Shown: positions 53-62,566, numbered from the stretch's first letter. The stretch: 63,931 nucleotides of DNA from a virus (IMGVR_UViG_3300032893_001611:1-63931), one strand, 5' to 3'. Notes: a model not told the origin generated them from the letters alone. A program made the numbers and translations.

Positions 53-128
53 GGCCAGGTAGCTCAGTTGGTAGAGCGCAGCCCTGAAAAGGCTGGCGTC
101 GGCGGTTCGATTCCGTCCCTGGCCACCA
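53..128 (+). tRNA. tRNA-Phe (GAA), integration target
   Basis: 76-nt cloverleaf GGCCAGG...CCTGGCCACCA; anticodon stem CAGCC/GGCTG with loop CTGAAAA (GAA at 86-88); T-loop GTTCGATTC; encoded CCA. Confidence 0.98.
79..127 (+). repeat. attL core, 49-bp direct repeat (3' part of tRNA-Phe)
   Basis: CAGCCCTGAAAAGGCTGGCGTCGGCGGTTCGATTCCGTCCCTGGCCACC is identical to 63821-63869. Confidence 0.97.
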
Positions 129-2186: not shown

Positions 2187-2524
2187 CGAACCCTCCGCTT
2201 ATATTTTTCGGGCGCACGGCCGTGCTCTTTATTGAAGGAATTCAAACGCGTTTAAATCCGCTCCATTTTCCTCGAACCCCACTTTGCAGACCGTCACTGC
2301 GCGTCAAGGGTCGAGATGAACGGCAACCCCGGCCGCCCTTGACTCAGCTACGTGACGGCCTGCTTCACCCCTCTTTCCCATTAAGAGGAAAATGGAGGTT
2401 TTAAAACGCTATGAAGCTACAGAAGAAAGAACAGACCGGGCGGGACGGCGAGGCCGCGCCCGTGGCTTGCATAATTATGGAAGATTCCCGCAACAGATTG
2501 AAAGGAATCGGGTTATACTCGGGT

Positions 2525-2917
2525 ATGCGGTTATTGCTCGGTTTCGCCCTTGTCATGATCCCCATGCAGGCGATGAGCTTGAAGGACTTCAACGCGAAGG
2601 CCCCGGCAGAGCAATCCAGCTACGTCGCATCCTTTATAGAAAAGATGTCCGGCGACCTCGGCGCGAAGAACCCCGAGCTGGGCCAGGCCATCCGCGACTG
2701 GTTCACGAAGAAGGCCGCCGGCAAGCCGGTATCCGAAGGCATGGAGAAGCTGTACGTCGAGCTGACCGCGCTTGAGCTGCAGGCCCGCGACGGGAAGGCC
2801 GACCTGTCGAAGCTCCAGCTTGAATCCGTGATCGTCTACCTCGTGAAGCAGAAATTCCAGCCGCACAACGCGAACCTGCTGAAGGCGATGCCGCGCATAC
2901 TGCACGCGGCCGCCTGA
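2525..2917 (+). CDS. Secreted hypothetical protein (paralog of 2937-3728)
   Basis: Signal peptide MRLLLGFALVMIPMQA; mature SLKDF...IRDWF..K.AG..S.GM...DLSKLQLE; start moved from ORF-track 2411. Confidence 0.7.
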   Translation: MRLLLGFALVMIPMQAMSLKDFNAKAPAEQSSYVASFIEKMSGDLGAKNPELGQAIRDWFTKKAAGKPVSEGMEKLYVELTALELQARDGKADLSKLQLESVIVYLVKQKFQPHNANLLKAMPRILHAAA

Positions 2918-2936
2918 CAACGTAGAATGGCAGGCA

Positions 2937-3728
2937 GTGAAGCGCCTGCCCATTTTCGCGCTCATCGCGGCCTTGCCGGCCGCAGCGTTAAGCCTCAAGG
3001 ACTGGGAAGCCCGGACGAACGCGGCGCAGGTTGAATACCTGACCGGCTGCCTTGCGCGGCTTGTCGTTGCCATCGATAAATCAGACAAGCCGCTCGCGGA
3101 ACGCATCCGCCGTTATTACGGGGACAAGCCAGCCGGGCAGAAATCCTCAACCGGGATGCTCGATCTTTTGCAGCGCATCGGCCGCGTTGAAAGAGACCGC
3201 AGCCTTGACCTTTCCAAGGTCGAGATCGAGGACCAGATCCTCAAGACCACCGTCGCGAAGTTCGGCCCGATGCCGGCCACCGTCACCCGCGCGGGCATCA
3301 GCGCCCCGACGCGTGACTTCGTGGAAGTAACCCCGAAGCCGGGCATCCCGCCGACAGTCCATGAAACCGAGCCGACCGACAACCCCATCGGCCCCGGCGG
3401 CTTCATCACCGCGCCGCAGGTCCGCAGCGTCGCCGATCATCGGCCTGACTGGATCGGGAAAACGATGGACGTGCAAGGCACCGTCTCTCGCGTCACGGTG
3501 CCGGGCGTTGCCGCGCGGATCGTGTTCCGCGAAGCGCCCGACGGCAGCTTTCAGGTGTTCACGCCGCTTGTCGACGAGCTGCGCGCCCGATTCGGCCGGG
3601 ATCTCGCGGGACTGATCGGCAAGACGATCCGCGTCCATGGCGAGGTTCAGAACTTCGACGGTACGCAGGGCGGAATCCGCTTCACCGACATGCAGCAGTT
3701 TACGGTAATTGAGCCCCCTGCCCGGTAG
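2937..3728 (+). CDS. Secreted protein, paralogous N-domain plus C-terminal OB-fold-like domain
   Basis: Signal peptide; SLKDW...IRRYY..KPAG..S.GM...DLSKVEIE; C-terminal IGKTMDVQGTV...GKTIRVHGEV. Confidence 0.75.
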   Translation: MKRLPIFALIAALPAAALSLKDWEARTNAAQVEYLTGCLARLVVAIDKSDKPLAERIRRYYGDKPAGQKSSTGMLDLLQRIGRVERDRSLDLSKVEIEDQILKTTVAKFGPMPATVTRAGISAPTRDFVEVTPKPGIPPTVHETEPTDNPIGPGGFITAPQVRSVADHRPDWIGKTMDVQGTVSRVTVPGVAARIVFREAPDGSFQVFTPLVDELRARFGRDLAGLIGKTIRVHGEVQNFDGTQGGIRFTDMQQFTVIEPPAR

Positions 3729-4333: not shown

Positions 4334-4642
4334 TCACTGCGCCGGCACGGCCTCGGCCCCGGTCATGTCGTTGCCGGTGTCGATGATCGTGATGTGGATC
4401 TCGGGCGGTGTATCCGGCGGGCTGTTCGGCGGAACGACCATCGTCACCCCCTCGTCGCCGCAATCCTGATAACACCACTGGTCCCGCGCGGTGCAAAGCG
4501 CCCCGTCCGCGTTTCTGAAATCGCAGACCGTGCCGCCGACATGTGCCGCCCCGGCCGCGCAATCATGACGGCCATCCAAGCATGGCAGAGCGAACGCGGG
4601 CGACGCTGCGAGCAGCATGGCGATAAAAAGAAATCGGTTCAT
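4334..4642 (-). CDS. Secreted Cys-rich small protein
   Basis: Signal peptide MNRFLFIAMLLAASPAFA; 6 Cys; ATGA overlap with upstream gene. Confidence 0.7.
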   Translation of the reverse strand: MNRFLFIAMLLAASPAFALPCLDGRHDCAAGAAHVGGTVCDFRNADGALCTARDQWCYQDCGDEGVTMVVPPNSPPDTPPEIHITIIDTGNDMTGAEAVPAQ

Positions 4643-5628
4643 CCCCGCCTCCGCTCGATGATGACGGTGTCATTCAAGACAATCCGCGTCTTGCGCGGCT
4701 TCGGCTTTTTCCGGTTTTCCGCGAACATCGTTTTCGGCCGCAGGTCGAGCAGCGCGTAGGTGCGCGCGTGCCGGCTATTCAGCACTGTGACGACGTTGGA
4801 GAGATCGGCATCCGACAATGCTTTGTTGAACAGATACGCGCCATAGATTCTGGTTCCATTCGACATGGCAGTGCTGGCGTTGCCGTTGGCGATTTGGAAA
4901 GCCGCTGACGGTGAAGAGGTGGACGCGCCTGAACTCAATGTATTGCTGGTAAAGGTTTTTGCGTTCTGTGCAGATTTAAAAGTTGTCCCCGTGTAATTAA
5001 AGGCGAAGGCGACAAGGTAATCAGTGCTGGCGTTGAACGTGGCCGTGACCTGGGTCGCGTGTTGAGTTCCAGAGGTTTCTTGGTTGAGGGTATATTTTGT
5101 ACCCGTGCTTTGCAGTTCGAAGAGGACACCGGTGTTTCCCGATGCCACGTTACACGTACCGCCGAGTCTTTCGGTGGCGGCAATAGTTCCCGAAGTTCGA
5201 AAGGCGATGATGAAGGTAAAAGGACCGCCGCCGGTTGTTTTATGAAGGTTGTTAAGAGCCGCGGTATTTGATCCTGAAAGGGCGAAATAGTTTGATCCTC
5301 CCAAGGCCCAATAAGCTGCGGAGTCCCCGGCCGATCCCGTGAAAGTCGGCGATCCTGTAGCCGTGAAATTGTAAGCAGATTGCGCCGAACCATCGTCAGG
5401 TGAAGCTATAAGATTCGACCACGTTGTGCCCGATCCACTGTAGCTGGAAGAAAGAGTTGCATCCACATCAAACAGGGCCTGAACCCCGGATATCTGGTCA
5501 AGCGGCGATGTATTGCGGCTGGATACCTGGAGGGAACCCATGATGCCGACGTCAGACGGCAGGTTCGCGCTGGCCGTGGAGGCCAGCAGCACGCACGCCA
5601 GGAGAACGTAGATTATTTTTTTCATCAT
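4639..5628 (-). CDS. LamG/ConA-like putative receptor-binding protein with signal peptide
   Basis: LFDVDA..SSYSGSGTTWSNL...RIYGAYLFNKALSDAD LamG-type pattern; N-terminal MMKKIIYVLLACVLLASTASA. Confidence 0.75.
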   Translation of the reverse strand: MMKKIIYVLLACVLLASTASANLPSDVGIMGSLQVSSRNTSPLDQISGVQALFDVDATLSSSYSGSGTTWSNLIASPDDGSAQSAYNFTATGSPTFTGSAGDSAAYWALGGSNYFALSGSNTAALNNLHKTTGGGPFTFIIAFRTSGTIAATERLGGTCNVASGNTGVLFELQSTGTKYTLNQETSGTQHATQVTATFNASTDYLVAFAFNYTGTTFKSAQNAKTFTSNTLSSGASTSSPSAAFQIANGNASTAMSNGTRIYGAYLFNKALSDADLSNVVTVLNSRHARTYALLDLRPKTMFAENRKKPKPRKTRIVLNDTVIIERRRG

Positions 5629-7100
5629 GACGCCGCCAGATCGCCGGAGAGATACCAGTCGTCCTGTGCGTCCTCAAAAAGCGTTACACAGGAATATTGT
5701 GCGCGCAGTTTCTTGGTCGCCGCGCCGGTGTTGATGGTTACGCCGGCGCCGGCGACGATCGTCGTCTGCCCGGCGCCCTTCTGGCAGACGATGACCTGCG
5801 TGCCGACCAGCCATGCCACGGAGGAATGGGGCGGCACCGTCAGGTTGTTCGCCGATCCTACGTTCATGAGCACAGCGCCCCCTGCCCCCGAAGATCCGAG
5901 CGCATCGCCGAGCACGAGCGTATAGGATGCCGTCTGCGTATTGATGGCCAGAACCGCCGGGGCCGCGCCGAGATTAGCGAGCGCGCCTGCCGCCGTGCCG
6001 GCGTTGGTACCGCCGTAGCCGAGACCGACGGTAGAGCCGTGCCAGGTGCCGTTGCCCACCGTGCCGAGCGTGGTCAGGTTCATACTGCCCGCCCACGTCG
6101 ACAACGCCGTGTTCTCGACGTTGCCGAGCCCGACTTCGGATTTTGCTATGGTGCCGTTCTTCCACTTGCCCGTCGCATTGTCGTATTTCAGCACGTCCTT
6201 GTCGGACAGCGTGCCGAGAGCGACATCAGACAGGCCCGACAGCGCCGCGCCGGTGTGTCCGTCGATATAGGCCTTGACGGCTTTCTGGCTGGCCACGCGC
6301 ACATCGGAATTCGCGGCCAGGGTGTTGTCGGTGTCGAGATATGACAGCGGCATCTGCGCGGTATTGGTGACGTTGCCGAGGCCGACAAGTCCGGCGTTGA
6401 ACGCCCCGGCATCCTGCACCGTGCCGGATGTGTCGGCGAAGCTGGCCGCATGTCCTGCGGTGAACGTACCAGTGACCGAAGCGACCGTGCCGCCCGAGCC
6501 AGACGCCGCCTTCGCCGCCGCCGTGCCGAGCGTGGGCTTGTTGAGGATCTGCGCCAGACCCGAAACCGCGTTCCAGTCCGCGTTGACCGGCGCGGTATAA
6601 CCGCCGATGTCAGATGTCGAGAGCGTAACCGCGCCCGTGCGGCCGGCGACCGATGCCACGAGCGCGCCTCCGTCCTGCACAGTCCCGGCTGTGTCGGCGA
6701 AGGTGCAGACATGGCCGGCGGCCGTCGATCCGCTGACCGACGCCACGGTCGCTTTGGTATTGTCCGACGCCGCCTTGACGCCAGCCGTGCCGAGGCCGAG
6801 CTTTGTCCGCATGTTCGCGGCCGTATCGGTCGTCATCGTGCCGCCGGAATTGAACAATATCTGGCCCGACGTGCCCGGCGCGTGGGCCTGCATATATGTG
6901 TTCAGGTCGGCGTTGGTTTCCTGCCGCGTGCAGTAGCCCGGCGAGCCGTTGATCGTGCAGCTGCGGCCGACGAGGTGAATGTCGGCGCTTTGCGCCGGCG
7001 CGCCCGAGTTGAAGTCGCCGAAGCCGACGCCTGCCAGAGCCATCGGGCCGATCAAAAGGATGACGAGCGCGAGGGACGCTATGAAAATCCGTTGCTTCAT
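5625..7100 (-). CDS. Tail-fibre-like protein with signal peptide
   Basis: Fibre motifs VASVAGRTGAVTL, NADWNAVSGLAQILNKPTL, VGLGNV.NT, GGT.A.TA..A..NLG; C-terminal YTLVLGD...GAGQTTIVAGAGVTIN domain. Confidence 0.85.
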   Translation of the reverse strand: MKQRIFIASLALVILLIGPMALAGVGFGDFNSGAPAQSADIHLVGRSCTINGSPGYCTRQETNADLNTYMQAHAPGTSGQILFNSGGTMTTDTAANMRTKLGLGTAGVKAASDNTKATVASVSGSTAAGHVCTFADTAGTVQDGGALVASVAGRTGAVTLSTSDIGGYTAPVNADWNAVSGLAQILNKPTLGTAAAKAASGSGGTVASVTGTFTAGHAASFADTSGTVQDAGAFNAGLVGLGNVTNTAQMPLSYLDTDNTLAANSDVRVASQKAVKAYIDGHTGAALSGLSDVALGTLSDKDVLKYDNATGKWKNGTIAKSEVGLGNVENTALSTWAGSMNLTTLGTVGNGTWHGSTVGLGYGGTNAGTAAGALANLGAAPAVLAINTQTASYTLVLGDALGSSGAGGAVLMNVGSANNLTVPPHSSVAWLVGTQVIVCQKGAGQTTIVAGAGVTINTGAATKKLRAQYSCVTLFEDAQDDWYLSGDLAAS

Positions 7101-7115
7101 GCTGGAAAACCGCTG

Positions 7116-7277
7116 TTAGGGGTTGAGAACGATGTACTGGCCGGTTTCGGCGTCGATCATCGGCTGGCCTGTTTCCTGATCTGTCCACGCGTTGTCAGGG
7201 ACACCGCCGGAGCTGGTCGCCGGGGCCAGATAGCCTACGCGCACGATCCAGTTATTGGGGTTGCTGACCTTAATCAC
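7116..7277 (-). CDS. 53-aa protein with doubled D.ETGQ motif (not in ORF track)
   Basis: GTG start overlapping the upstream TGA; MIKVSNP...TDQETGQPMIDAETGQYIVLNP. Confidence 0.6.
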   Translation of the reverse strand: MIKVSNPNNWIVRVGYLAPATSSGGVPDNAWTDQETGQPMIDAETGQYIVLNP

Positions 7278-7714
7278 GACGGCACACGCGTCGCACCCAG
7301 CAGGAACCTGATATGGCCCTGCGTGTTGCAGAAGGTGTTGCCGTCGACATCCTTGAAGACAAGGTCATAAACGCAGACCTTTTCCGGCGCGAAATGGCCG
7401 GTGTGCGAGCCGCCGGTGATCGTCGCCGCGAGTTCGGCGAGCGATTCCTTGACGATCCGCGATTTGAATTGTGCCTGCCCCGAGTTGCTGATGATGAAGC
7501 CATTGGTCGGCCCGAGCGCAAACAACGGGTCCGCAGCGGCCTCGATATCCGCCCAGGAGCCATAGATGCTCAGATAGGCGGACCAGCCGTCGACGCCGCC
7601 GGCCGGGATCTCGCCCGTTGTAGGGTCGATTGGCTGCCAGATCCGCACGAAGTCGGCGTTGGTCTTGCAGACCAGATCCAGCTGCTGCAGTTCATCGTCT
7701 CCGGTTTCGCTCAT
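7274..7714 (-). CDS. Putative fibre adaptor (Ig-like/BppU-like) protein
   Basis: LDLVCKTNADFVRIW...VYDLVFKD.DG.....QGHI beta-sandwich pattern; lies directly before the fibre genes. Confidence 0.55.
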   Translation of the reverse strand: MSETGDDELQQLDLVCKTNADFVRIWQPIDPTTGEIPAGGVDGWSAYLSIYGSWADIEAAADPLFALGPTNGFIISNSGQAQFKSRIVKESLAELAATITGGSHTGHFAPEKVCVYDLVFKDVDGNTFCNTQGHIRFLLGATRVPS

Positions 7715-7727
7715 GGCAGCTTTCCTT

Positions 7728-7913
7728 TCAGATCTTCAGCAACAGATGGACGGCAATGCGGGAGATCGCGGCAAGGAAGAACAGGAAATTCAAAGCCGCG
7801 AACACCATCCCGTCCATCGCGCCTGCCAGATCGTCATCGGGCTTGCGGCAGATAAGCCACAACACCGCATTGAGTGCGGCGAAGACAAAGAGCCATCCGA
7901 AAAATTCGTGCAT
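7728..7913 (-). CDS. Small two-TM membrane protein
   Basis: 61 aa, two hydrophobic segments. Confidence 0.6.
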   Translation of the reverse strand: MHEFFGWLFVFAALNAVLWLICRKPDDDLAGAMDGMVFAALNFLFFLAAISRIAVHLLLKI

Positions 7914-7922
7914 GGGATTTCC

Positions 7923-8090
7923 CTACTGATTCAGGTGGAAAAGGTCGTCGGGATCGGTCGGGTCGCACGGAGGACCGGCTTTTGCTTCCGGAGCGGTTGC
8001 CCCGCTGCCGTCTCCGCGCGCCAGTTCCTCGGCCTCTTTGACAAGGCCGAGGAACTTAAGTAGGAGCTTTATCCACTTCCAGAGCTTCAT
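7923..8090 (-). CDS. 55-aa protein with cationic amphipathic N-terminus (not in ORF track)
   Basis: ATGA overlap with 8087; MKLWKWIKLLLKFLGLVKEAEE...LNQ. Confidence 0.65.
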   Translation of the reverse strand: MKLWKWIKLLLKFLGLVKEAEELARGDGSGATAPEAKAGPPCDPTDPDDLFHLNQ

Positions 8091-8398
8091 TGCGCGGGCG
8101 GCGGCGGCGCGGTCTGGACGACGTGGCCGACGAGCGCGCCGATGGCAGGCACCGCCTCATCGAGCGCGACATTGACGCCTACTGTAACGGCGTTTTTCTC
8201 AAGCGACGACAGGCCGGCATCGATCAGCGCTTTGCCCTGCGCGCCGTTGCCTTGCGCCGTGGCCACGTCGTGGTAGACCTTGGTCGCGAGGTCGACGCCG
8301 CCGGCCTTGAGGCCGGGCGCGAGAGCCGACCAGAGGTCATGAACGCCGGACGAGATGAAGTTCTCGACGCGGTCCCGGATATCAGTGAATTTAGACAT
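8087..8398 (-). CDS. Hypothetical lysis-region protein
   Basis: MSKFTDIRDRVENF..., AAAGGA RBS, overlaps the endolysin end. Confidence 0.65.
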   Translation of the reverse strand: MSKFTDIRDRVENFISSGVHDLWSALAPGLKAGGVDLATKVYHDVATAQGNGAQGKALIDAGLSSLEKNAVTVGVNVALDEAVPAIGALVGHVVQTAPPPPAQ

Positions 8399-8873
8399 TC
8401 GCAGTTTCCTTTTCGGTTTGAGGTTGAGGTTGAACCCGCGCCGGCACCGGCACGAGCTGGTAGAACACATGCTTGCCGATGCGCGCCGTCCGCAGCGGCG
8501 GCGGTTCCTCGCGCAGCCAGGCGGGATTGACGCCGGCGACGACGTAATGCGTGGCCTCGTTTGTGCTGTCGGGCAAACCGCCGGTCACGGCCGTGGTGGC
8601 GATGTCGAGCGCCTGCCGGAACTGCGGATCGGCGTCGGTCACGGCCAGCAATTTGTCGCGGTTGGGATCGTCCGCATTCCAGCAGCTGAACTGGAACGGC
8701 TTCTGGCAGATCTGCACGACCGTCGCGCCCCACCAGTAAGGCTGCGAGTCAGCGGCCGCGACGGCCAGCCGGTTCATGACCACGCAGGCGACGGCGGCCA
8801 TGCCGTCCGGCCCCTCGCCGCGCGCCTCGCCCCAGATCGTCCGGGCGAGGATATCGACGGTTTTGTCGATCAT
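8391..8873 (-). CDS. Endolysin, cell wall hydrolase (SleB/Hydrolase_2 family)
   Basis: LARTIWGEARGE...AVACVVMNR...QFSCWN...ATHY...IGKHVFY. Confidence 0.92.
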   Translation of the reverse strand: MIDKTVDILARTIWGEARGEGPDGMAAVACVVMNRLAVAAADSQPYWWGATVVQICQKPFQFSCWNADDPNRDKLLAVTDADPQFRQALDIATTAVTGGLPDSTNEATHYVVAGVNPAWLREEPPPLRTARIGKHVFYQLVPVPARVQPQPQTEKETANV

Positions 8874-9076
8874 GGCTTGTCGCTCATGATGTAGCGATAG
8901 AGCCGGACGGTGTCGTAGATCAGCCGCACCAGAACGATGAGCAGGCCGAAGAAGATCGTCAGGTTCTGCGCCGTGCTGACGGCCCAGGCCGCGATGCCGC
9001 CGCCGATGCCGTATGACACGGCGGCGTCTATTTTTTCGTGATGCTGGTCAACGAGGTGTTGCAGTTTGTCGAGCAT
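8870..9076 (-). CDS. Putative holin
   Basis: 68 aa, hydrophobic segments, charged C-terminus, directly upstream of the endolysin. Confidence 0.7.
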   Translation of the reverse strand: MLDKLQHLVDQHHEKIDAAVSYGIGGGIAAWAVSTAQNLTIFFGLLIVLVRLIYDTVRLYRYIMSDKP

Positions 9077-9112
9077 TGCGCTCTCCCTTTGGGTTAAGGG
9101 TTGGAGGGAAAC

Positions 9113-10417
9113 TCAGTCGTCGCGGCCGCGGCGGTCCACCCAGCCGCGCGTGGAGAGATAGAAATTGGTCACCGAAGCCGTGGCGCGCGCCCGGATCTGC
9201 GCGCTCGTGTTCGTCCACAGTCCGAACGGCGTTGTGCTCTGCGCATAGTTCGCATTCATGTAGAGATCAATGAGTGGAGCTGCTGTCACGCTCGGCGCAT
9301 CGTCGTTCTGGTCGAGGCTGGAGAAATAGACGCCGCGCGCACTCGATGTCGCGCCCGATTGCGCCGTAAACAGCGGCATGACCTTGATGCCCGTCGGGAC
9401 CGTCAATGTCAGGCTCGACGCCGACGTGGAGATCGTCGTGTTGTTCTGGTCAAGGACAGGCGATTTCCAGAGGACCGTGTCGCCACGTTCCACGAAGGCG
9501 ATGATGTGGCTGCTACCGTCCGTCAGCACTGAGCCGAGGCGGCGCTTGTAGCTGTAACCTGACGGCAGCGTCGGCGAAAGGCCGGCGAGATCGGCGCGAT
9601 CGCCGAAGCAGGCGTCGGTGCCGTCGGCCTTGTCGATCAGCCAGACGTGATACCACTTGCCAGCGGCGAGACTGCCGGTATCGAGGCCATTCGCGCCTGT
9701 CGTGGTGAAGTCGCAGGTCAACGTTCCGCTCGACATCATCACGGTATTGGTGTCGTCCGCAGCCGTGCCCGCGGCCACGTCGATCTTCGTGTTGGGCGTC
9801 GAGCCGTCGTTCGACAGCGCCAGCCCGGCGAGATAGGAGCGAATGACCGTCGAGCCGCCGCTGCTAGCCGCCGTCAACCGGCCCTTGGCGTCGACCGTAA
9901 TGCTGGCGTTCGTGTACGAACCGGCCGTCACGGCCGTGCTGGCGAGCTGCGTCGTGTCGATCGAGCCGTCAGCGACCTTGATGCCCGAGCTGCTGCGCCC
10001 GATGGTCGCGCCGTCGAGCTTGACGCGCAAATTGCCGGAGCCGTCGTCCTCAAGACCCTGCCCGATCGCCTCCGACAGAAGGGCCGACGCCGAAGCGCCG
10101 TTGTAATAGGGCGTGAACTTGTGCGTCGAGGTATTGACGCTGCCGATCACGACGTCGCTGCTGCCGTCATAGACCTTGACCAGCCACAGCGAACTGGAGG
10201 TCGTATCGCACCAGACCGTGCCGGCCGTGGCGTATGAGGGCCGCGAGCTGCCCGAATGGCAGCTGTTCAGCGCATTGCGCCATGTGCCGAGCAGCGTAGC
10301 GAGATCGGAGCCCGATGTCGTCGACGGGTTGATGGTGCCGAAATCGTACTGCGAGGCTGACGCCGGCAGCGCCAGCGCCACCAGCAGCGCCAGCGATAGC
10401 AGAATTTTCCTGATCAT
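9113..10417 (-). CDS. Tail fibre protein with signal peptide
   Basis: Start at the ATGA overlap with tail tip gene; MIRKILLSLALLVALALPASA then SQYDFG...HSG..RPSY..AG.VW.DT; ITVDAKGRLTAASSG; PTLPSGYSYKRRLG. Confidence 0.85.
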   Translation of the reverse strand: MIRKILLSLALLVALALPASASQYDFGTINPSTTSGSDLATLLGTWRNALNSCHSGSSRPSYATAGTVWCDTTSSSLWLVKVYDGSSDVVIGSVNTSTHKFTPYYNGASASALLSEAIGQGLEDDGSGNLRVKLDGATIGRSSSGIKVADGSIDTTQLASTAVTAGSYTNASITVDAKGRLTAASSGGSTVIRSYLAGLALSNDGSTPNTKIDVAAGTAADDTNTVMMSSGTLTCDFTTTGANGLDTGSLAAGKWYHVWLIDKADGTDACFGDRADLAGLSPTLPSGYSYKRRLGSVLTDGSSHIIAFVERGDTVLWKSPVLDQNNTTISTSASSLTLTVPTGIKVMPLFTAQSGATSSARGVYFSSLDQNDDAPSVTAAPLIDLYMNANYAQSTTPFGLWTNTSAQIRARATASVTNFYLSTRGWVDRRGRDD

Positions 10418-13400
10418 AGCTGTTTCCCGTAACCTGTGGCCGTCCAGTTGATGGTGCGGGCGACGGCCGATCCGCCCGAATCCAGAACCTTGACCTTGAA
10501 CCCCGTGCGGTCCGGCGAGCCCGTGCCCGAAGGCCCGGTGAAGACAAGATGGTCGCCGTTCGCGCCGTTGACTTCCGTCACATGCACGATCGGCGCGGCG
10601 TTGAAGGCCGGGCTGTAATTGACCGTATAACCGCCCGTGCCGCATGACACGCCGTTTTCGCCGTCGATCCGCTGTATCATCGAGGCCTTGACCGACAGCG
10701 CCGTGACGCTCGGATTCGTCGCGCCGTCGACTGAGGCCAGCAGCAGCTGGAACCGCGCCGCCCGGAACGAATAGTCGCCCGTCGAGAAGTCCTGCCACGC
10801 GCTCCATGTCGGCGAGCCCGCGGGGTCGTCGTCGGTGAAGCTGACCTGCAGCGTGACGCTCCAGTTGAGCGGATTCGCGCCCGACAGCGACGAAACCCCG
10901 GCCAGTGTCGGCCATGAGGCCAAGGTGTTGCTGGCCATCGCGCCGAAGGCCGTGATCGCGGCCGTCAGGCGCGTCGTGTATTTCTGGCCCAGGTCAATGA
11001 CATTCGCAAACGAATAGGCGCCTGTCAGCGAGCCAACGGTCGTCAGGGCCAGCGTTCCCGACGTCACCGAGCAATTGGTCTTGCTGCCCGAGAAGCCGGG
11101 GTCTTCGGTGACCGCCGCGATATCCGCGAACGTCGTCAGCGGGTCGTTCGGGATGATGAAGAAGGCCGCGTTCAGGCTTTCATTGCCCTGCCGGTCATAG
11201 GCCTTGATCGCGTAGGTTCCCTTCTGCAGCGCGAAAGGCATGTAATTGACGGTCAGATCCTCAAGGCCTGCGACCGGCTGCATGGTGTTCCACGTCGCCG
11301 AACCGTCGGTCACCGGCGAGAACCTGATCGTGTAGTGGTCGAAGTCTATGTTCGTGTTGGCGTCCCAGCTGCCGATGCCGGTTGATCCGACAGCCTGGAT
11401 CGTGAAATCGTCGACATCGTCCGGGCGACCCGATTCGCCGAGGAATATGACCGTCTGCGTCGTCACATCGGAATTCAGGTTCGCGGCCAGGACGTTGCCG
11501 GGATCGACCTTGTGATACCGGATCTCGACGTCGTAACTGACGCCGTCGTCGCAGCCGGTCACGATCACCAGCTGCGCCGAGGCCGATACCACCATCGCCG
11601 GCCCGAAATCGTCCGTACCGTTGCGCCGGATGCGCACGACAGGCGTCACCGGCGCCTGGTTGTTGTTCTGCAGCCGGATCACCATCCGCGTCTGCACCGA
11701 GCCGTCGATGTTGCGCACCGCGACGGTCTCGTCCGTCTGGATCGAAAGAATGACGGGCGCGGCAGGACGCCTGAGCGCGGGCGGCACCGTCACGCCGCTA
11801 TCCCATGCCGGAATCGGCAGCGAAGGATCGACAAATCGCGCGGGCGCGTAATCGAGCGCCGTGATCTGGGCCGAAAGGTCCGGTCCCGGCACGATCGACT
11901 TGATGATCAGCTCGCGGCTCTCGCTTCCCCCTTCCCCGAACGTGCAGAGATCGCCCGGAGCCGGCGCGTCGTCGAGCGCGAACGGCTCGGCGAAATTGAA
12001 ATGCCGGCCGGTTCCCGGCACAGTCGTCAGCGTCTTGAGCAGCTGCGTCTTGTCGGATAGGCGGAAGCGCATGGCGTAGGTCTTGCCCGCTTCCATCGTC
12101 ATGTCGTTGTCGACCGTGAATCCCGTCGCCATCGCGGGAGATCCGCCGTCTTCCTCGACCGTCTTCACGCGCGCCGACCCGAGGCCGACGAGGATCACGT
12201 CATGCGCGAACCTGATCTTGTCGCCGCGCGTCACGACCAGATGCTCGACGTCGGCGAAGAACGTGTGAGTCTCCGGCTGCAGGAGCATCGACGCGAGGTG
12301 CTCGCGTGCATGCACATAGATGAGCGCCGGATCGGTGATGCCCGGCAGTTCCAGCGTCAGGAACTTGCTCGCCGCGACCGTTCCCGGCACTTCGCCGAAC
12401 TCGCTGTAGCCGTCGGCGTAGACGATGCGCTCGTCGTTCACATATCCCTTTTGCTCGTTGATGAACGGAACGCGGAAGGCGTGTGGGATGTCGACGTAGT
12501 TGATGCTGCCCTTGTAGCCCCAGCTGTTACGCGGCGTGAAAAGGTCCTCGTCCGTGTCCTTTTCCTCGTCGATGACGACCGACCACTTGCCGTCCATGAT
12601 CGAGCGCGCCGCGCGCCCGGCCGCGGCGATCTCGTCGAGCTGGTCGGCCATCGTCGTCTGGAAATCGATAACGGCGTTGTATTTGAAGCCCCTCGCCGCG
12701 TTGCGGCCATGCCAGTACTGCAGCGTCGCGAGGTCGACGCGGTTGTCGGCGAGGCCTCGGCTCGTGTCCTCCGTCTGCAGCACGTAGCGGTAATGCGAGG
12801 CCGGGTTCTGCGTCTCGCGGACGATCCACGTCCCGCTGTCGGCATCCCAGTCGGGCATCTCGCTCGCGACGATGGCATTGAGCTGGTCGACCTCGCCGTT
12901 GAGCTGCCCGGTCGCCTTTATGCGCAGGACGGAGAACGCCACGCCCGCCTGCGTCACCGGCGGCCCGTAGGTGAAGGTGCGAAGCGCCGTCCAGAAGAAA
13001 TCGTCGAAGTAGGTGTCGTGCGTCTCGTCGGCCGTCACCCGCTGCACGCGGACGTCATACTGGCCGTTGGCGATCGTGAAATAGTCGTTGAGCCGGTAGG
13101 ACCGCCGTAGCGCCGATTCCTGCTGCAGCGTTAGCGTGAAATCCTGGTCGGTCCACGTCCCGGCGCCGGCCGGGCTGATGCCGATCTTGAATTCGACCGT
13201 CAGGGGCAGGTGCTTGCCGTCGCTCGTCCTGACGAAGAACAGGCCCTGCGGCCACGTCAGGTCGACCATGATCTCGTCGACGGCCGCCTCAGTCGTCTGG
13301 ACGTGCCAGCCGTCGACCTGCTTCAAATCGATGCTGATGTCCTGCTCGTCCGTCTTGTTGGGATAGAGCGCGATGGTAGCCGGCGGCGAGCCGTCGAGAT

Positions 13401-14136
13401 AATGCTCCACCTCGACATCCTGAAAATTCGAAAGCAGCGTGTCGCCGATCTTCAGGTCATAGAGGTTGACCGGCGCGCGCCCCCAGAGAAACATCTGGCG
13501 CACATACTGGTCATCGCCGACGGTCTCGGTATAGGTCTTGACGGCAAGGTCCGGCACCACTAGGTCTTTGCCGAAAATGACCTTGACCGGGCCGTAGGGG
13601 TTGAGCTGGTTGCGCGCCCCCTGGATGAATAATGTCTCGCTGACCGCGCGCCCCGGCGACGTCTGCGTCATCCGCGGCTTCGCCGGCGGCGCGAGGACGG
13701 ATTGCAGCAGGAAGCCGACACCACTGATGATGCCCTTGCCTAGCGCCGTGGCGATGTTGATGCCGCCGATGTTGCCCAGATCGCCGAACAGCGCCGCGCC
13801 GAGGCCGCCGCCAAACGCCGCGCCGGCCGCAAGCGTGACGAGCGAGATCACCGTGCCGAGCACGCTCTTCTTGCCGCCGCCGCCCGCAGGCACGATCCTG
13901 ATGGTCGTGCGCTCGCCGGGCTGGGGGATAACCTTGTCCCACTGGTCGAAGGGAATGTAACGGTCCCCCACCTGTGCGTGGCCGTTGCGGCGCAGTATGG
14001 GCTCGGGCTGGGCCAGCCGCGCCATTTCGGCCACGGTCATCCCGAACGGCACCTGCAGCCTGATCGACTTCGCCTCGAACGGATTCGGGCAGACGCGCAG
14101 GCTGACTGTCGGCTGCGCTGCTTCCATGCCCTTCAA
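10414..14136 (-). CDS. Tail tip / host-specificity protein (lambda J-like, with I-like N-terminal domain)
   Basis: 1240 aa; GQYDVRVQRVT, TQNPA, GD.I...HDV, FN3-like repeats; follows the NlpC gene; start could be ATG 14127. Confidence 0.9.
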   Translation of the reverse strand: MKGMEAAQPTVSLRVCPNPFEAKSIRLQVPFGMTVAEMARLAQPEPILRRNGHAQVGDRYIPFDQWDKVIPQPGERTTIRIVPAGGGGKKSVLGTVISLVTLAAGAAFGGGLGAALFGDLGNIGGINIATALGKGIISGVGFLLQSVLAPPAKPRMTQTSPGRAVSETLFIQGARNQLNPYGPVKVIFGKDLVVPDLAVKTYTETVGDDQYVRQMFLWGRAPVNLYDLKIGDTLLSNFQDVEVEHYLDGSPPATIALYPNKTDEQDISIDLKQVDGWHVQTTEAAVDEIMVDLTWPQGLFFVRTSDGKHLPLTVEFKIGISPAGAGTWTDQDFTLTLQQESALRRSYRLNDYFTIANGQYDVRVQRVTADETHDTYFDDFFWTALRTFTYGPPVTQAGVAFSVLRIKATGQLNGEVDQLNAIVASEMPDWDADSGTWIVRETQNPASHYRYVLQTEDTSRGLADNRVDLATLQYWHGRNAARGFKYNAVIDFQTTMADQLDEIAAAGRAARSIMDGKWSVVIDEEKDTDEDLFTPRNSWGYKGSINYVDIPHAFRVPFINEQKGYVNDERIVYADGYSEFGEVPGTVAASKFLTLELPGITDPALIYVHAREHLASMLLQPETHTFFADVEHLVVTRGDKIRFAHDVILVGLGSARVKTVEEDGGSPAMATGFTVDNDMTMEAGKTYAMRFRLSDKTQLLKTLTTVPGTGRHFNFAEPFALDDAPAPGDLCTFGEGGSESRELIIKSIVPGPDLSAQITALDYAPARFVDPSLPIPAWDSGVTVPPALRRPAAPVILSIQTDETVAVRNIDGSVQTRMVIRLQNNNQAPVTPVVRIRRNGTDDFGPAMVVSASAQLVIVTGCDDGVSYDVEIRYHKVDPGNVLAANLNSDVTTQTVIFLGESGRPDDVDDFTIQAVGSTGIGSWDANTNIDFDHYTIRFSPVTDGSATWNTMQPVAGLEDLTVNYMPFALQKGTYAIKAYDRQGNESLNAAFFIIPNDPLTTFADIAAVTEDPGFSGSKTNCSVTSGTLALTTVGSLTGAYSFANVIDLGQKYTTRLTAAITAFGAMASNTLASWPTLAGVSSLSGANPLNWSVTLQVSFTDDDPAGSPTWSAWQDFSTGDYSFRAARFQLLLASVDGATNPSVTALSVKASMIQRIDGENGVSCGTGGYTVNYSPAFNAAPIVHVTEVNGANGDHLVFTGPSGTGSPDRTGFKVKVLDSGGSAVARTINWTATGYGKQL

Positions 14137-15488: not shown

Positions 15489-17924
15489 TTAATAACGCGG
15501 CACAGGCGCGGAGACTTGCTGCCGCATGGCGGCCGAGAACCGCGAGAGCGGATTTTTCGCGTTGGCTTCCATCAGTTTGTCGATCGTCACCAGCAGCTGG
15601 GCGGAGCCATCCGGACCGCGCTGCGCCTGTGTGCTGACCTGCACGGGCGCGTTGTTGTTGATGGTCACCTGCATGCCGCCGCCGTTGTTCTCGCCGGCGG
15701 GAATGATCTTCTCGCCCTTGTGGATCTGGGCAACCATATCGTACGGCACGTAATCGGTGCCGACGTCGAACGACGGCAGGCTGAGGCCGCCGACAATGGA
15801 GCTGCCGCCCTGGTTCCAGTTGATTATCTCGGGACCGGTCGACAGGCCGAGGAAACCCGAGAGCGCGCTGAACAGCGGCTTCTCGATCTCAGACCGGATC
15901 TCCAGCCGAGCGAAATCCGCGATCATCGAATTGACCAGGTCCTTGACCGAGAGCTTGCCCGTGGTCGCGAACTCGACGAGCGCATCCTCGCCTTTCTGGA
16001 ACGCGTCGACAACCGTCTGGCTGGCGAGGTCGCTGACGTCGTTCATTTCCTGCTGGACCTTCAGAATCCCGGTATGGAAGCCGCCGCTCGCGGTCTTGTC
16101 CAGTTCGGACATCGAGATCTGCGCCTGCAGCATCGCGTCGCCGTACTGTTTCGTCGTGATGATCCCCTTGGCGAGCAGGGCGTTGAGGCCCGTCATGGTC
16201 GCCTGCGCCTTGCGGCCGGGACCGACGATATCGTTGAAGCTGCCGACGATCGAATCCTCGACCGATGCGCCTGTGTCGTTCATTTCCTGCTGCACCTTGA
16301 GCAGACCGGCCGTGATCCCGCCGGAAACCGTCTTGTCAAGCTCGGCCATCGATATCTTGGCGGCCAGCATCTGGTCGGAATAATTGCGCGCTGTGATCAG
16401 GCCTTTGCCCATCAGCACGTCGAGGGCGTCGATCCTGACCTGCAGCTTCTGCGCCGCGCCTGTGGTTTCCTCCCAGATGCCGACAAGCGACTGCTCGGCG
16501 GTGTTGCCGACGTCCTTCATCTCCATGTTGATTTTCATCAGGCCGGCGAGGAAGCCGCCCGACTCGGTCTTGTCCAGCTCCGCGACCTGAAGATTGAGCT
16601 TGTCCAGCGCATCGTTGTACTGGTCGGCCGTGATCTTGCCATCCCTGTACAGGATGTTGAGATCGGAGAGCGTCTGCTGATAATCCAGCAGCGGGCCGAC
16701 GATGGATTTCAACAGCTCCTTCTGGCGCTTTTCTGCTTCCTCCAGCGCCGAAATGCCTTCCAAATTCGGCGGCGGAATCGAAGACGGCCTTTTCTGCACA
16801 TTGGCCTTTGCGCGGGCGTCGGCGTCCTTCTGGATCTTGTCGATCTTAGAACGCGTGCTTACGAAGGTCTCAGCCTCTTTGTTCAGTGCGTCCAGCGCAG
16901 CCATGTCTTTATTGAGGAACGATTGATCGGACCAGGCCATGTCCTGCATGTCCTCGGCCATGCCGGTAAAATGCTTGCCGATCACCGGCAGCTTCTCGGC
17001 CATCTTGAGCGTGTTTGCTATGTCCTGGTCGGCACCCATGACCATCTTGTCGATGCCGACCGTGACCTCGCCGAACAGCTCCCGCATGCCGAGGACGCCC
17101 TCGCGGACGACATCGATGGCATCGGCGGCGACGCCGATACCATCGGCGACGGCCTTGCCGAAGTCGGCGGCGTCGGCGCTCGAATCTATGAAATCGTTCC
17201 CGACCTGCGTCACCAGCGGCGACAGCTGTACGTCGATGGCGTTGCCGAGGCCCTTGACGATATCCTTGACCCGGCCCATCGTATTGCCGGCTTCGTCGAC
17301 CTTCTTGGCGTCGACCTCGCTCAGCGAGAGGTTGAACTTGTCGTTGAAGGCGCGGGCGTCGTCGAGCTTGGCCTGGTAATCGACGAGCATGTCGATGACG
17401 GCACGGCCTTCCTTGCCGTACAGCTTGGTCGCCAGCGTCGTGCGCTCGGTCGGATTCTCCATGCCGGCGAGGGCCTGGGCCATCTTCTCGAACTGCTTGT
17501 CGGGCGAGAGCTGGATCACGTCCCGCCAGTTCAGGCCGAGCGCCTTGAAGATGTTCTGAAACTGCGTCGATCCGTTCGCGGCTTCCAGCAGCGCCTGCTG
17601 CGTCTTTGTTATGGCCTTCGCCAGCCCCTCCTGGTCGACCCCCGCCTCTGACGCCACGCGGCTCATGGCGCTATATTCGCGGCTGGCTATGCCGAGGCTC
17701 TCGGCCTGCCGGTCGGTCGCGACGATCGACTGCCCTTGCGTCAAGGTGAGGTACTTGAAGCCGTCGGCGAGGTCGCGTATGGCCGTCTCGGTCGCATTGC
17801 TGTAGATCGTCGCCTTCGCGACATCCTGGAACGACAGCATCGACTTCGAGGCGCGCTTCATCCCCGACTCGAAATCGGCGGTGTCCGCGAAGAGATAGGC
17901 CGTGAGTCTACCGACTACGCTCAT
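15489..17924 (-). CDS. Tail tape measure protein
   Basis: 811 aa helical; ADTADFESGMKRA; LVEFATTGKLSVKDLVNSMIADFARL; three 79-aa internal repeats. Confidence 0.93.
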   Translation of the reverse strand: MSVVGRLTAYLFADTADFESGMKRASKSMLSFQDVAKATIYSNATETAIRDLADGFKYLTLTQGQSIVATDRQAESLGIASREYSAMSRVASEAGVDQEGLAKAITKTQQALLEAANGSTQFQNIFKALGLNWRDVIQLSPDKQFEKMAQALAGMENPTERTTLATKLYGKEGRAVIDMLVDYQAKLDDARAFNDKFNLSLSEVDAKKVDEAGNTMGRVKDIVKGLGNAIDVQLSPLVTQVGNDFIDSSADAADFGKAVADGIGVAADAIDVVREGVLGMRELFGEVTVGIDKMVMGADQDIANTLKMAEKLPVIGKHFTGMAEDMQDMAWSDQSFLNKDMAALDALNKEAETFVSTRSKIDKIQKDADARAKANVQKRPSSIPPPNLEGISALEEAEKRQKELLKSIVGPLLDYQQTLSDLNILYRDGKITADQYNDALDKLNLQVAELDKTESGGFLAGLMKINMEMKDVGNTAEQSLVGIWEETTGAAQKLQVRIDALDVLMGKGLITARNYSDQMLAAKISMAELDKTVSGGITAGLLKVQQEMNDTGASVEDSIVGSFNDIVGPGRKAQATMTGLNALLAKGIITTKQYGDAMLQAQISMSELDKTASGGFHTGILKVQQEMNDVSDLASQTVVDAFQKGEDALVEFATTGKLSVKDLVNSMIADFARLEIRSEIEKPLFSALSGFLGLSTGPEIINWNQGGSSIVGGLSLPSFDVGTDYVPYDMVAQIHKGEKIIPAGENNGGGMQVTINNNAPVQVSTQAQRGPDGSAQLLVTIDKLMEANAKNPLSRFSAAMRQQVSAPVPRY

Positions 17925-22550: not shown

Positions 22551-22870
22551 CAGGCCATCGACGGATCGCGAATGGTCGACAGGAGCCCTATGACCGCTCC
22601 GGGCAGTTTCCCGTCGCCCCAATCATCGCCGCCGCCGTCCCGGTCGCGATAGAGCACGCCGGTCAGGTAAAGAACAGATTTCTTGACCAGCGCCGGAATG
22701 TTCTCCGCGATGATCTCGCCGGCGGAATCGAAATACGCGTCCGGGTGATCGAGATAGTTCAGGACCGCTTCACTCGCCGCCTCGATCTTCAGCTCGACGT
22801 CGCCCTGGTCGTCGTCGCTGTCGAGCCGCAGATGATCGCGGGCCTCTTCGTAGGTCACAAGCGAAATCAT
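22550..22870 (-). CDS. Head-tail connector (gp6-like)
   Basis: LVTYEEARDHLRLD...IEAASEAVLNYL...LY.DR. Confidence 0.9.
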   Translation of the reverse strand: MISLVTYEEARDHLRLDSDDDQGDVELKIEAASEAVLNYLDHPDAYFDSAGEIIAENIPALVKKSVLYLTGVLYRDRDGGGDDWGDGKLPGAVIGLLSTIRDPSMA

Positions 22871-23934
22871 CAGGCCTTGTCCTTCCCGTCAGCGCCGCGC
22901 TTGACCGCGAGGGTCCAGCTTTTCGCACCCGAAGCGGGCCGTTCGTCGGTCTTTTCGTTGCAGTGGAACAGGCTGCCGGCGAACGTCACGCAATCGCCGC
23001 GCAGATACGTCTTGCCCGCCACGTAGACGCCGCGATAGATCATGCACGGGATCTCGAACGATTTCTCTTTCACGCTGTCGTCGGCCATCTCCTCGCGCAG
23101 CGTGATGGTCCGTTCACCGTCGTGCGCGATCGTGAGCGCCTTGCGGCCGTTGAGGATCAGCTGCCAGTCGGTGCCGCCCTTCGAGCGCCACAGGCCGCCT
23201 TTATCAGCGGCGAAAACACCCTTCCGGTAGGTTTTCTCGGGGTCGATCGACCCCAGAACCTCGATTTCTGCGGCATCACGGCCGTCAATCCCGTCCCGGC
23301 CGTCCTTGCCGTCGCGCCCGTCGCGGCCGTCCTTGCCTGATTCGCCATCCTTGCCGGGATCTCCCTTTTCGCCCTTCTGGCCCTGAGTGCCAACGTCGCC
23401 CTTAAGGCCTTTCTCTCCGGGCTGGCCTTCGGCACCATCACGGCCCGGCTTGCCGTCGACACCGTCGCGCCCGTCCTTGCCGGGAGCCCCCGGCTCGCCT
23501 TTTTCACCGGGCTTGCCGTCGACACCGTCGCGCCCGTCCTTGCCGGGACTGCCGGGATCTCCGTTTTCGCCCGGTTTTCCGTCGATTCCGTCCTTGCCGG
23601 GTGTCCCAGGGTCGCCTTTTTCGCCCTTTTCACCGGGTTTTCCGTCAATTCCGTCCCTGCCCGGCGCGCCATCCTTGCCATCGATGCCATTGCGGCCGTC
23701 GACGCCATCCTTCCCCGGAGCGCCCGGCTCGCCTTTTTCACCCGGCTTGCCGTCGACGCCATCGCGGCCATCCTTGCCAGGAGCGCCGTCCTTGCCGTCG
23801 AGGCCGGTCTCGCCTTTCTCGCCGCGCTGCGGCGCGCGGGCTTCCAGCGCGACGATCCGCTCTGCCAGCGGCTTCAGGGCGCGCGCGATGTAGTCCTGCA
23901 CGCCGGCGACGAACTTTTCAGGGTCAAATTTCAC
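22870..23934 (-). CDS. Collagen-like (Gly-X-Y) head-associated protein
   Basis: About 60 G-X-Y triplets (GKDG, GEKG); C-terminal YRGVY..G..Y..GD.VTF.GSLFHC...WTLAVKRG. Confidence 0.88.
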   Translation of the reverse strand: MKFDPEKFVAGVQDYIARALKPLAERIVALEARAPQRGEKGETGLDGKDGAPGKDGRDGVDGKPGEKGEPGAPGKDGVDGRNGIDGKDGAPGRDGIDGKPGEKGEKGDPGTPGKDGIDGKPGENGDPGSPGKDGRDGVDGKPGEKGEPGAPGKDGRDGVDGKPGRDGAEGQPGEKGLKGDVGTQGQKGEKGDPGKDGESGKDGRDGRDGKDGRDGIDGRDAAEIEVLGSIDPEKTYRKGVFAADKGGLWRSKGGTDWQLILNGRKALTIAHDGERTITLREEMADDSVKEKSFEIPCMIYRGVYVAGKTYLRGDCVTFAGSLFHCNEKTDERPASGAKSWTLAVKRGADGKDKA

Positions 23935-27672: not shown

Positions 27673-27732
27673 GGCTGGCTGACTCCTGCGGGAAATGACT
27701 GCTCGCATCGCGCGAGCCGGGGTTGCGGGGGA

Positions 27733-39299: not shown

Positions 39300-39390
39300 T
39301 GTCCGCGCTCGCCGTCATACCGTCCCCCCCCCCCCCCGAATTTCCGTATCGGGCGCATCCGCGCAGTCGCCCCTGACCTTTTTTGCCGTC

Positions 39391-39440
39391 TCCCTCGTCG
39401 CCGAGGGGATGGCTTCGTGACCCCTCGGCTAGAGGGAAAC
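39391..39440 (+). repeat. Repeated leader hairpin, copy 1
   Basis: GCCGAGGGG-N12-CCCCTCGGC with outer CCCTC/GAGGG; near-identical copy at 41628-41676. Confidence 0.75.
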
Positions 39441-39466
39441 TTCAACCCCAAAAAAGGAGCATATCT

Positions 39467-51408: not shown

Positions 51409-51549
51409 CCCCGGTCCAACCAAAGAAAGAGGCTCGGCGGGGGAGAGCCTGTGGCCCCGCCAGTCAGAACCTTTCGGCATTCCGCGTGCATCGAAAGAGA
51501 TGGATGCGACGTAAACCCGGCATTAACGGGTCGAGCCGTAGGATCATCT

Positions 51550-55436: not shown

Positions 55437-55615
55437 CCCCCGCTGAGTTCAAGGAAGCACGCAAGCGCCTCTGCCTTTCCCAAGCGGAAATGGCCGAGTT
55501 TTTGCGCTTGTCGGATGCGCGCGTCATCCGCTTCTACGAAGCGGGCGCGCGGGAGATCAGCGGCCCTATACAGGTCGCCATCGCCTACCGCTTGAAATAC
55601 GGCCCGCTGCTCTAG
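55433..55615 (+). CDS. XRE HTH protein
   Basis: MTPAEFKEARKRL.LSQAEMA...YEAG.REI. Confidence 0.8.
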   Translation: MTPAEFKEARKRLCLSQAEMAEFLRLSDARVIRFYEAGAREISGPIQVAIAYRLKYGPLL

Positions 55616-62386: not shown

Positions 62387-62566
62387 CTTCCCCGGCGTCT
62401 AAGCCCTTTAAATCCGCCACATCGCCACGGCAGCGCGAATGCCTTTACAGGCCGCGAGGCCATGAAAGGGACGCCGTCCAATCCGCCAGCGCCGACAGCC
62501 ACGAATGGTGGTAATGTCGTGGTCGAGGCAAATCGCTGCGCGTCATCGAAGGGAGATTTCGATGCA

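Follow-up and report, generated by a model that had tools for sequence, protein, structure and literature searches.

Signal-Peptide-Like N-Termini on Fibre-Like Proteins Encoded in the Late Operon of a Temperate Siphophage

Introduction

Could a phage tail fibre leave the cytoplasm before it joins the particle for which it was made? Tailed-phage morphogenesis is taught as purely cytoplasmic, and a cleavable export signal at the N-terminus through which a fibre docks would challenge that teaching. The question is raised by four genes on the minus strand (4334-10417) of IMGVR_UViG_3300032893_001611, a complete IMG/VR virus record of 63,931 bp from a wetland metagenome, the whole of which is called the window below. 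A first-pass annotation of this DNA claimed that four genes for fibre-like or receptor-binding-like proteins in the late operon, with starts at 10417, 7100, 5628 and 4642, encode signal peptides. The sequences are present on the minus strand as they were written there, and their products are named P0001 to P0004 here. Judged by sequence, the four N-termini are probably genuine, cleavable signals of the general secretion (Sec) pathway, of the kind cut by signal peptidase I (SPase I), with export and cleavage as the likely outcome. A fuller interpretation is advanced only tentatively, namely that these are Sec signals on late fibre-like and receptor-binding-like proteins of a temperate siphophage, which would be exported and then used in the manner proposed below.

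Four Signal-Like N-Termini

P0001 (434 aa; 9113-10417, on the minus strand like the other three) starts at 10417 with MIRKILLSLALLVALALPASA, followed by SQYDF. Its codons 1-21 (10355-10417) form a predicted Sec signal peptide that divides into MIRK, ILLSLALLVALAL and PASA, with cleavage predicted before SQYDFGTI. P0002 (491 aa; 5625-7100) starts at 7100 with MKQRIFIASLALVILLIGPMALA and continues with GVG, its signal-like part being residues 1-23 (7032-7100). The start of P0003 (329 aa; 4639-5628) at 5628 reads MMKKIIYVLLACVLLASTASA before NLP, with residues 1-21 (5566-5628) signal-like, while that of the small protein P0004 (102 aa; 4334-4642) at 4642 reads MNRFLFIAMLLAASPAFA before LPC, with residues 1-18 (4589-4642) signal-like. 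The n-regions (MIRK, MKQR, MMKK and MNR, respectively) are basic and free of acidic residues. The h-regions are uninterrupted hydrophobic stretches of 10-14 residues by our own parsing, within which the strict rule described below reported cores of 10-12. The c-regions (ASA before S, ALA before G, ASA before N and AFA before L) have small residues at both -3 and -1, and Pro is absent from +1. Neither a lipobox Cys at +1 nor a twin-arginine motif is present in any of the four N-termini.

To pass the strict rule, an N-terminus had to show K or R in its n-region, 10 or more uncharged residues averaging 2.2 or higher on the Kyte-Doolittle hydropathy scale in its h-region, and small residues at both -3 and -1. 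As a control set, 444 first-start open reading frames (ORFs) of at least 50 aa were taken from all six frames of the window. Three of these passed, namely P0002, P0003 and P0004, and none of the other 441 did. The open frame of P0001 extends upstream inside the gene for a J-like tail tip protein, but with the ATG at 10417 taken as the start this protein passes too, and the four N-termini are the only ones in the window to do so. At 10417 the start codon of P0001 and the TGA stop of the J-like gene share the sequence ATGA, and overlaps of 4 nt likewise link P0002 to P0003 and P0003 to P0004. A GTG at codon 13 was considered as an alternative start of P0001 and rejected, as no ribosome-binding site stands in front of it and homologues keep the full signal.

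Relatives With and Without the Extension

The N-terminal domain of P0001 (N-domain; about 85 residues, at ~22-105) constitutes a separate and large family. A 13-sequence profile of it retrieved 5,835 cluster representatives at E<=1e-3 and 2,369 at E<=1e-10, and P0001 itself matches this profile over positions 1-93 (E 2.8e-32). Among 147 new top hits of the profile, 142 carry M-[S/T/A/P]-Q at residue 1 (110 MSQ, 22 MTQ, 8 MAQ and 2 MPQ), many of them as MSQYDFGTI or MSQSDFGTI. The five that remain are three multi-repeat proteins (P0244, P0306 and P0308) and two proteins with a signal-like extension (P0245 and P0288). In P0001 the domain starts at residue 21-22, unlike the family norm of residue 1. 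The statement of the first-pass annotation that cytoplasmic homologues begin M-(S/A)-Q-(H/Y)-D holds in substance.

Across all searches, seven distinct signal-bearing sequences were found: P0001, P0005, P0011, L003, P0245, P0288 and L021, with P0245 identical to L034 over the N-terminal stretch printed. In all seven, the extension is 20-22 residues long and contains two basic residues and a hydrophobic core that varies in sequence but not in character, and it ends in [A/V]-x-A exactly before [S/A]QYDFGTI. The c-region of the six other than P0001 is ASA, AHA, APA or VPA. When the N-termini are aligned, the first Met of the signal-less homologues lines up with position -1 relative to the predicted cut, in keeping with the earlier claim that the predicted mature N-terminus is that of the homologues. 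Methionine aminopeptidase removes Met before a small second residue. Because Met1 aligns with the -1 residue and the small second residues allow Met removal, predicted signal cleavage and Met removal should yield the same mature N-terminus, S/T/A-Q-x-D-F. This coincidence would be hard to explain unless the extension is removed. The view that the hydrophobic N-termini behave like real, selected Sec signals is therefore supported, since they appear grafted exactly onto the family N-terminus in seven distinct sequences.

In a tree of 149 N-domains (95 residues), the signal-bearing sequences fall into two small groups with signal-less ones between them, and the nearest signal-less neighbour of one group is P0246, which starts MAQYDFGTI. 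A tree of 95 residues is compatible either with one gain followed by losses or with two gains. Signal-like starts were also seen in 7 of 119 homologues of the P0001 C-terminal domain among the matches listed, five of which carry other N-terminal modules (P0021, P0050, P0059, P0072 and P0121).

P0001 as the Fibre Following J

The first gene had been placed in the canonical fibre slot, coupled to the J-like gene, and both synteny and the ATGA overlap agree. The J-like tail tip or host specificity protein (1240 aa; 10414-14136, minus strand) matches PF24801 FNIII-A_GpJ (E 3.5e-24) and phrog_31 'central tail fiber J' (E 1.3e-90). Its last ~200 aa are conserved and end in GYGK, and its C-terminal domain is kept in 12 related loci. 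The J-like gene ends no more than ~50 nt upstream of the N-domain gene in 12 of 13 viral loci, the remaining locus (L014) being without a J match. In the cultured Rhizobium phage RHph_TM16, the N-domain gene again follows a J-like gene and its protein starts MTQFDFGTIN. On account of the profile match and this synteny, P0001 is, by sequence, the canonical fibre following J.

Behind the N-domain lie a stalk and a C-terminal, beta-rich, receptor-binding-like region (~190-434). Homologues of P0001 mostly match this C-terminal 55% alone, and such domains are present in cultured Rhizobium and Bradyrhizobium phages, a pattern of sharing that is usual for putatively exchangeable receptor-binding domains. 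No relative of the N-domain was found in Pfam, PHROG, NCBIfam or the Protein Data Bank (PDB), and an NCBIfam scan of 8 proteins gave no match. Sequence matches in the PDB to designed 'Pizza' propellers were set aside as spurious. P0001 retains all columns that are invariant in a six-sequence alignment (Q23, D25, N30, G36, W69, D71, Y83-G85 and others). Against P0005, its closest relative, it is 82% identical in the N-domain and 63% over the whole protein, and it is the only copy of its kind in the element.

An AlphaFold2 (AF2) model of P0001, with a mean predicted local distance difference test score (pLDDT) of 83, contains a helix at residues 2-16, a confident alpha/beta N-domain and a beta-rich C-domain with pLDDT above 95; the stalk is of low confidence, as expected when a trimer is modelled as a monomer. 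Its best fold match in the PDB is the Bd2133 fibre of Bdellovibrio (8OND; E 2e-4, probability 0.90), at a template modelling (TM) score of only 0.18-0.21, and T7 gp17 and a cyanophage fibre match more weakly. A complex prediction of three J C-terminal domains with three P0001 N-domains scored 0.01 against a mark of 0.32, which, being without controls, counts neither way.

The observation that three of the four proteins contain multiple Cys stands, with 4, 5 and 6 in the mature parts of P0001, P0002 and P0004 and 1 in that of P0003. The accompanying rationale, that disulfides would be formed after export, does not hold for P0001. Across 100 aligned relatives, not one of its four Cys positions is conserved, and P0005, its signal-bearing sister, contains just one Cys, so that a disulfide-driven reason for exporting this protein was rejected. 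A further candidate, that P0001 is a variable protein of a diversity-generating retroelement (Mtd type), was also rejected: the PF21916 mtd_2nd match reached 19.2 bits against a cut-off of 24.6, 9113-10417 takes part in no repeat pair, and a Pfam scan of 30 window proteins revealed no reverse transcriptase.

P0002, P0003 and P0004

P0002 resembles a fibre, with internal fibre repeats (family D5) and a C-terminal domain at ~365-491. It matches the PHROG families 'virion structural protein' and 'minor tail protein', which, together with the post-J slot of P0001, is in accord with the description of these late genes as fibre- or receptor-binding-like. Its last 125 residues recur in hundreds of phage proteins. 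Homologue sets were scored with a relaxed form of the signal rule, which was passed by one of 119 P0002 homologues among the matches listed. This is P0145, which is encoded on the same 162-kb contig as P0005 and carries the lipobox LSGC. Of 120 aligned sequences, moreover, P0002 and P0145 alone have Cys at both columns 439 and 471 (window 5625-6010), where the others have mostly Ala or Gly. The pair C439/C471 reflects one evolutionary event, but fits an oxidising destination. For P0002, then, the disulfide rationale is left with a positive hint, limited to this pair and to these two proteins.

P0003 has no family match in Pfam, PHROG or NCBIfam. Its AF2 model (pLDDT 83, predicted TM score 0.78) is a jelly roll of the ConA/LamG lectin type, with PDB neighbours at 9-16% identity among lectin-like domains of sialidases, clostridial toxin-complex proteins and a CBM40 module. 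The model thus points to a generic carbohydrate-binding fold, with no sign of toxicity. Signal-like N-termini occur in 5 of 27 P0003 homologues and the rest start directly, and no signal-like N-terminus was seen by eye in 41 relatives in viral contigs. P0003 shares with the signal-bearing P0390, P0397 and P0399 a C-terminal extension past the usual ...RTYA end of the family. This extension (window 4639-4770) reads ...RTYA-LLDLRxKTM..., is absent from signal-less members, and in P0390 is followed by an added Cys/Pro-rich tail. The G+C content at third codon positions (GC3) of the gene is 0.62 overall and 0.46 in the middle, with 0.74-0.76 at the start (the signal) and the 3' end; the other seven genes measured range from 0.78 to 0.86. 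This low GC3 suggests a recently imported binding domain. In P0001, P0002 and P0004, GC3 is 0.78-0.84, as in the tail genes, and these three are therefore ordinary coding genes of the element.

P0004 has 6 Cys among 84 mature residues. It has no relatives in Pfam, PHROG or NCBIfam, and an Atlas search returned nothing above 0.76. The pattern of a signal on a minority of members, seen in the P0001 family, recurs in the families of P0002 and P0003.

The Element and Its Late Operon

The window is one attachment site (att)-bounded prophage integrated in a tRNA-Phe gene (53-128, plus strand), as is evident from a tyrosine integrase gene and a 49-bp direct repeat. The left repeat copy (family D7) is the 3' part of the tRNA gene (79-127), and the right copy lies at 63821-63869 on the plus strand, adjoined by the integrase gene (62462-63715). 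The late operon runs on the minus strand from the terminase gene (27889-29568) through a fused protease-capsid gene and the portal gene to the tape measure gene (15489-17924), after which come gpM-like, gpL-like and NlpC-like genes and then the J-like tip gene. The fused gene (25705-27708, minus strand) is a single ORF of 667 aa that joins a prohead protease domain (Peptidase_S78) to a major capsid domain (Phage_capsid). Immediately after the portal gene comes one (22870-23934, minus strand) for a protein with collagen triple-helix repeats (PF01391, four stretches), the DNA of which has 63-nt periodic repeats (families D1 and D2).

On the 3' side of J, the minus strand carries in order P0001, a holin-like gene, an endolysin gene, five small ORFs, P0002, P0003 and P0004, separated by gaps of 0-36 nt or overlapping by 4 nt. 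A consensus scan, which is weak evidence, found no promoter-like or terminator-like site separating these late genes on the minus strand between 10417 and 4334. The small membrane protein of 68 aa at 8870-9076 (minus strand) has no family match in Pfam or PHROG, and its position and hydrophobic segments suggest that it is holin-like. The endolysin (8391-8873, minus strand) is a SleB-type cell wall hydrolase (PF07486, E 6.8e-16; phrog_938 endolysin). It has neither an export signal nor a signal-anchor-release (SAR) segment, and lysis should therefore need a hole-forming holin.

Between the left att copy and the end of the late operon, the plus strand (2411-3728) holds two adjacent genes, apparently paralogues, whose signal-like N-termini end ...A(L/M)S before LKD(W/F). 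One starts with MKRLPIFALIAALPAAALS at 2937; in the other, an internal Met within the ORF at 2411-2917 gives MRLLLGFALVMIPMQAMS. Neither has a Pfam match, and they may be cargo genes. Further genes of the att-bounded element (39383-41146, 51451-53205, 55612-58725 and 60863-61543) code for a ParB_N protein, for a relaxase of the MobA/VirD2 type and for a coupling protein of the VirD4/TraG type joined to an AAA ATPase. A protein starting MKVISVLMQKGGSGKTT looks ParA-like by eye. The whole may combine a prophage with a mobilisable element. A search of sequencing runs brought up three wetland DNA metagenomes, one of them the probable source, and no RNA.

Export, Assembly and Alternative Fates

In the mechanism proposed, the four proteins would be made together with the tail genes, since the genes overlap and no promoters or terminators are predicted among them. 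SecYEG would move them unfolded into the periplasm and cleavage would occur after A-x-A, leaving the post-J fibre with S-Q-Y-D-F-G-T-I, as in signal-less homologues after Met removal. The fibres would trimerise in the periplasm, like the Sec-exported, phage-like fibres of Bdellovibrio. P0001 would stay a virion fibre, its N-domain docking onto J-tipped particles only when lysis by holin and endolysin merges cytoplasm and periplasm, and holes formed by the holin may bring particles and periplasmic fibres together before the cell bursts. P0002 to P0004 would be exported likewise, to serve as further fibres or as accessory proteins that act on the envelope.

Among the fates open to P0001, use as a virion fibre appears most likely. 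It is favoured because P0001 is the sole copy, is translationally coupled to J and keeps the invariant residues, and because its N-domain is more conserved than the whole protein and the exact N-terminus is kept in all seven signal-bearing sequences. If P0001 is indeed exported, docking after lysis seems an evenly balanced prospect. The more general proposition, an export-then-assemble pathway in a tailed phage by which the last step of Caudoviricetes assembly would take place outside the cytoplasm, is possible but rather doubtful.

Several considerations weigh against export followed by assembly. Tailed-phage virions assemble in the cytoplasm, and Sec export of a structural protein is, to our knowledge, without example among tailed phages. 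Attachment at lysis would have rapid dilution to contend with, and has no precedent known to us. Side fibres, such as lambda Stf, can be dispensable, so that the argument from P0001 as sole copy is not compelling. The signal-peptide call comes from our own rule together with comparative evidence. The signal-bearing form is rare, being found in 2 of the 147 top profile hits, 1 of 12 viral loci with the N-domain, 2 of 69 metagenome loci (one further locus was unreadable, and motif-centred patterns may bias this count) and 0 of 5 reference-genome loci (Micavibrio, Pseudomonas, Roseovarius and one unclassified). Its confinement to two small groups in the tree points to few independent events underlying the signal pattern. 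The lipobox of P0145 suggests membrane anchoring rather than virion incorporation for the P0002 family. Finally, the position of P0002 to P0004 beyond the lysis cassette at the prophage end and the atypical GC3 of P0003 are both typical of cargo genes.

The last of these points lead to the best-surviving alternative, which we regard as possible yet on the unlikely side: the proteins may be exported and cleaved but never become virion parts, acting instead in the envelope of the producing or lysogenic cell after the phage has recruited them from among its fibre genes. Masking or modification of the receptor against progeny or competing phages, as by T5 Llp, is one conceivable task; another is service to the lysogen as adhesins or lectins. 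The P0145 lipobox, in a homologue of P0002 from a sister element, the distal position of the trio past the lysis genes and the foreign composition of P0003 are better suited to accessory proteins resident in the envelope. The confinement of C439/C471 to two export-tagged members of the P0002 family, the six Cys of the small P0004 and the lectin-like fold of P0003 also speak for an envelope role, and precedents are offered by T5 Llp, which binds FhuA, by PblA and PblB, and by Bdellovibrio fibres on the cell surface. Other points weigh against this reading. No promoter-like site or terminator on the minus strand from 10417 to 4334 sets the genes apart from the late operon, and P0001 is translationally coupled to J. 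Its J-associated N-domain and exact N-terminus are under apparent purifying selection and are not obviously needed by a decoy, and a second copy free of a signal, whose receptor a decoy might guard, is missing from the element. Moreover, a periplasmic protein cannot reach surface-exposed receptor epitopes without further translocation.

The remaining explanations are less likely than either reading in which the proteins are exported. It is improbable that the hydrophobic N-terminus stays uncleaved on a cytoplasmic fibre, as an inner-membrane tether until lysis, a tail-tip helix or a membrane-active segment used in infection. The AF2 helix at residues 2-16 of P0001 would suit such a segment, hydrophobic stretches exist in tail proteins such as tape measure proteins (the J-like protein here has one), and SAR segments are known on phage endolysins of the phiKMV type (PMC7696170). 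However, small residues at -3 and -1 stand at a fixed distance from the conserved Q in 7 of 7 sequences, a spacing for which an anchor has no need. At 10-14 residues, the h-regions have the short length expected of signals, not of transmembrane anchors, and 142 of the 147 top hits are without any N-terminal extension, which argues that a free N-terminus matters. An artefact of wrong start codons or chance hydrophobic stretches is very improbable. In its favour, the P0001 frame is open upstream of 10417 and a Shine-Dalgarno sequence is not obvious for P0002. Against it, none of the four genes has another ATG ahead of its conserved domain, the sole in-frame GTG in the P0001 signal has no ribosome-binding site, full n-, h- and c-regions are kept in homologues from independent contigs, and the strict rule was passed by 0 of 441 other ORFs.

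If export followed by assembly is correct, completion of the virion could be postponed to lysis; if the envelope role is, phages would repeatedly turn receptor-binding proteins of their own into components of the infected cell's envelope. Both outcomes matter for the evolution of host range and superinfection exclusion. Prophage annotation would be affected too, as such proteins would be called both 'tail fibre' and 'secreted protein', and so would the engineering of receptor-binding proteins, because disulfides could form if folding took place in the periplasm. Since the same domain occurs both with and without a signal, the case can be tested directly.

Comparison With Known Systems

In the full-text literature, a search that left most subscription journals and supplements outside its reach found no report of a Sec signal on a tailed-phage fibre. 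Signal peptides are described for phage endolysins, a holin, small membrane proteins and the fibres of Bdellovibrio (PMC3556154, PMC5291501, PMC10769870, PMC7696170, PMC12323379). Sec-exported and SAR endolysins such as KMV45 of phiKMV are late phage proteins that rely on host Sec ahead of lysis (PMC7696170), as is proposed for the window proteins. They are lysis enzymes, whereas the window proteins are of the host-recognition or structural type.

PblA and PblB are not known to carry a signal peptide and reach the surface through permeabilisation by holin and lysin. They are products of phage tail-fibre genes that also act on the bacterial surface (PMC4393417). Their host is Gram-positive, unlike the situation proposed for the window proteins.

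Exported phage proteins that block the phage's own receptor are known in the Cor-type lipoproteins. T5 Llp, a small lipoprotein, is located at the inner leaflet of the outer membrane and binds FhuA (bioRxiv 10.64898/2026.03.26.714494). It is a phage-encoded, Sec-dependent envelope protein tied to receptor use, as the window proteins may be, and the lipobox of P0145 parallels it. In contrast, Llp is a small early lipoprotein unrelated to fibres, while the window four have no lipobox, are fibre- or lectin-like, belong to the late operon and, except for P0004, are large.

The mosaic adhesive trimer (MAT) fibres of Bdellovibrio bacteriovorus, such as Bd2133 (PDB 8OND), are surface-located trimers that resemble phage tail fibres and have variable tips, and in all 21 MAT fibres the conserved domain comes directly after the signal peptide (PMC10769870). 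The architecture of P0001, with its predicted signal peptide immediately ahead of a conserved N-terminal domain, looks analogous. MAT fibres are encoded by chromosomal genes of the predator whereas P0001 is encoded in a phage late operon, and the fold match is weak (TM 0.2).

Closest of the systems compared is EVB27_007 of RHph_TM16, annotated as a 'tail collar domain-containing protein' (MN988459.1), which has the same N-domain as P0001 and starts MTQFDFGTINPATTTG. As with P0001, its gene overlaps the end of the J gene and is followed by lysis genes, and both proteins combine a conserved N-terminal anchor with exchangeable C-terminal binding domains. EVB27_007 starts directly with the domain and has no signal, whereas P0001 begins with 21 additional residues that resemble a Sec signal in every feature. 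The post-J fibre of J-encoding siphophages is presumably comparable in function to lambda Stf. The signal-like N-termini are well supported as a feature of sequence; on that footing, the known kind is the fibre following J, and what appears new is the displacement of its conserved domain from residue 1 by a signal-like extension.

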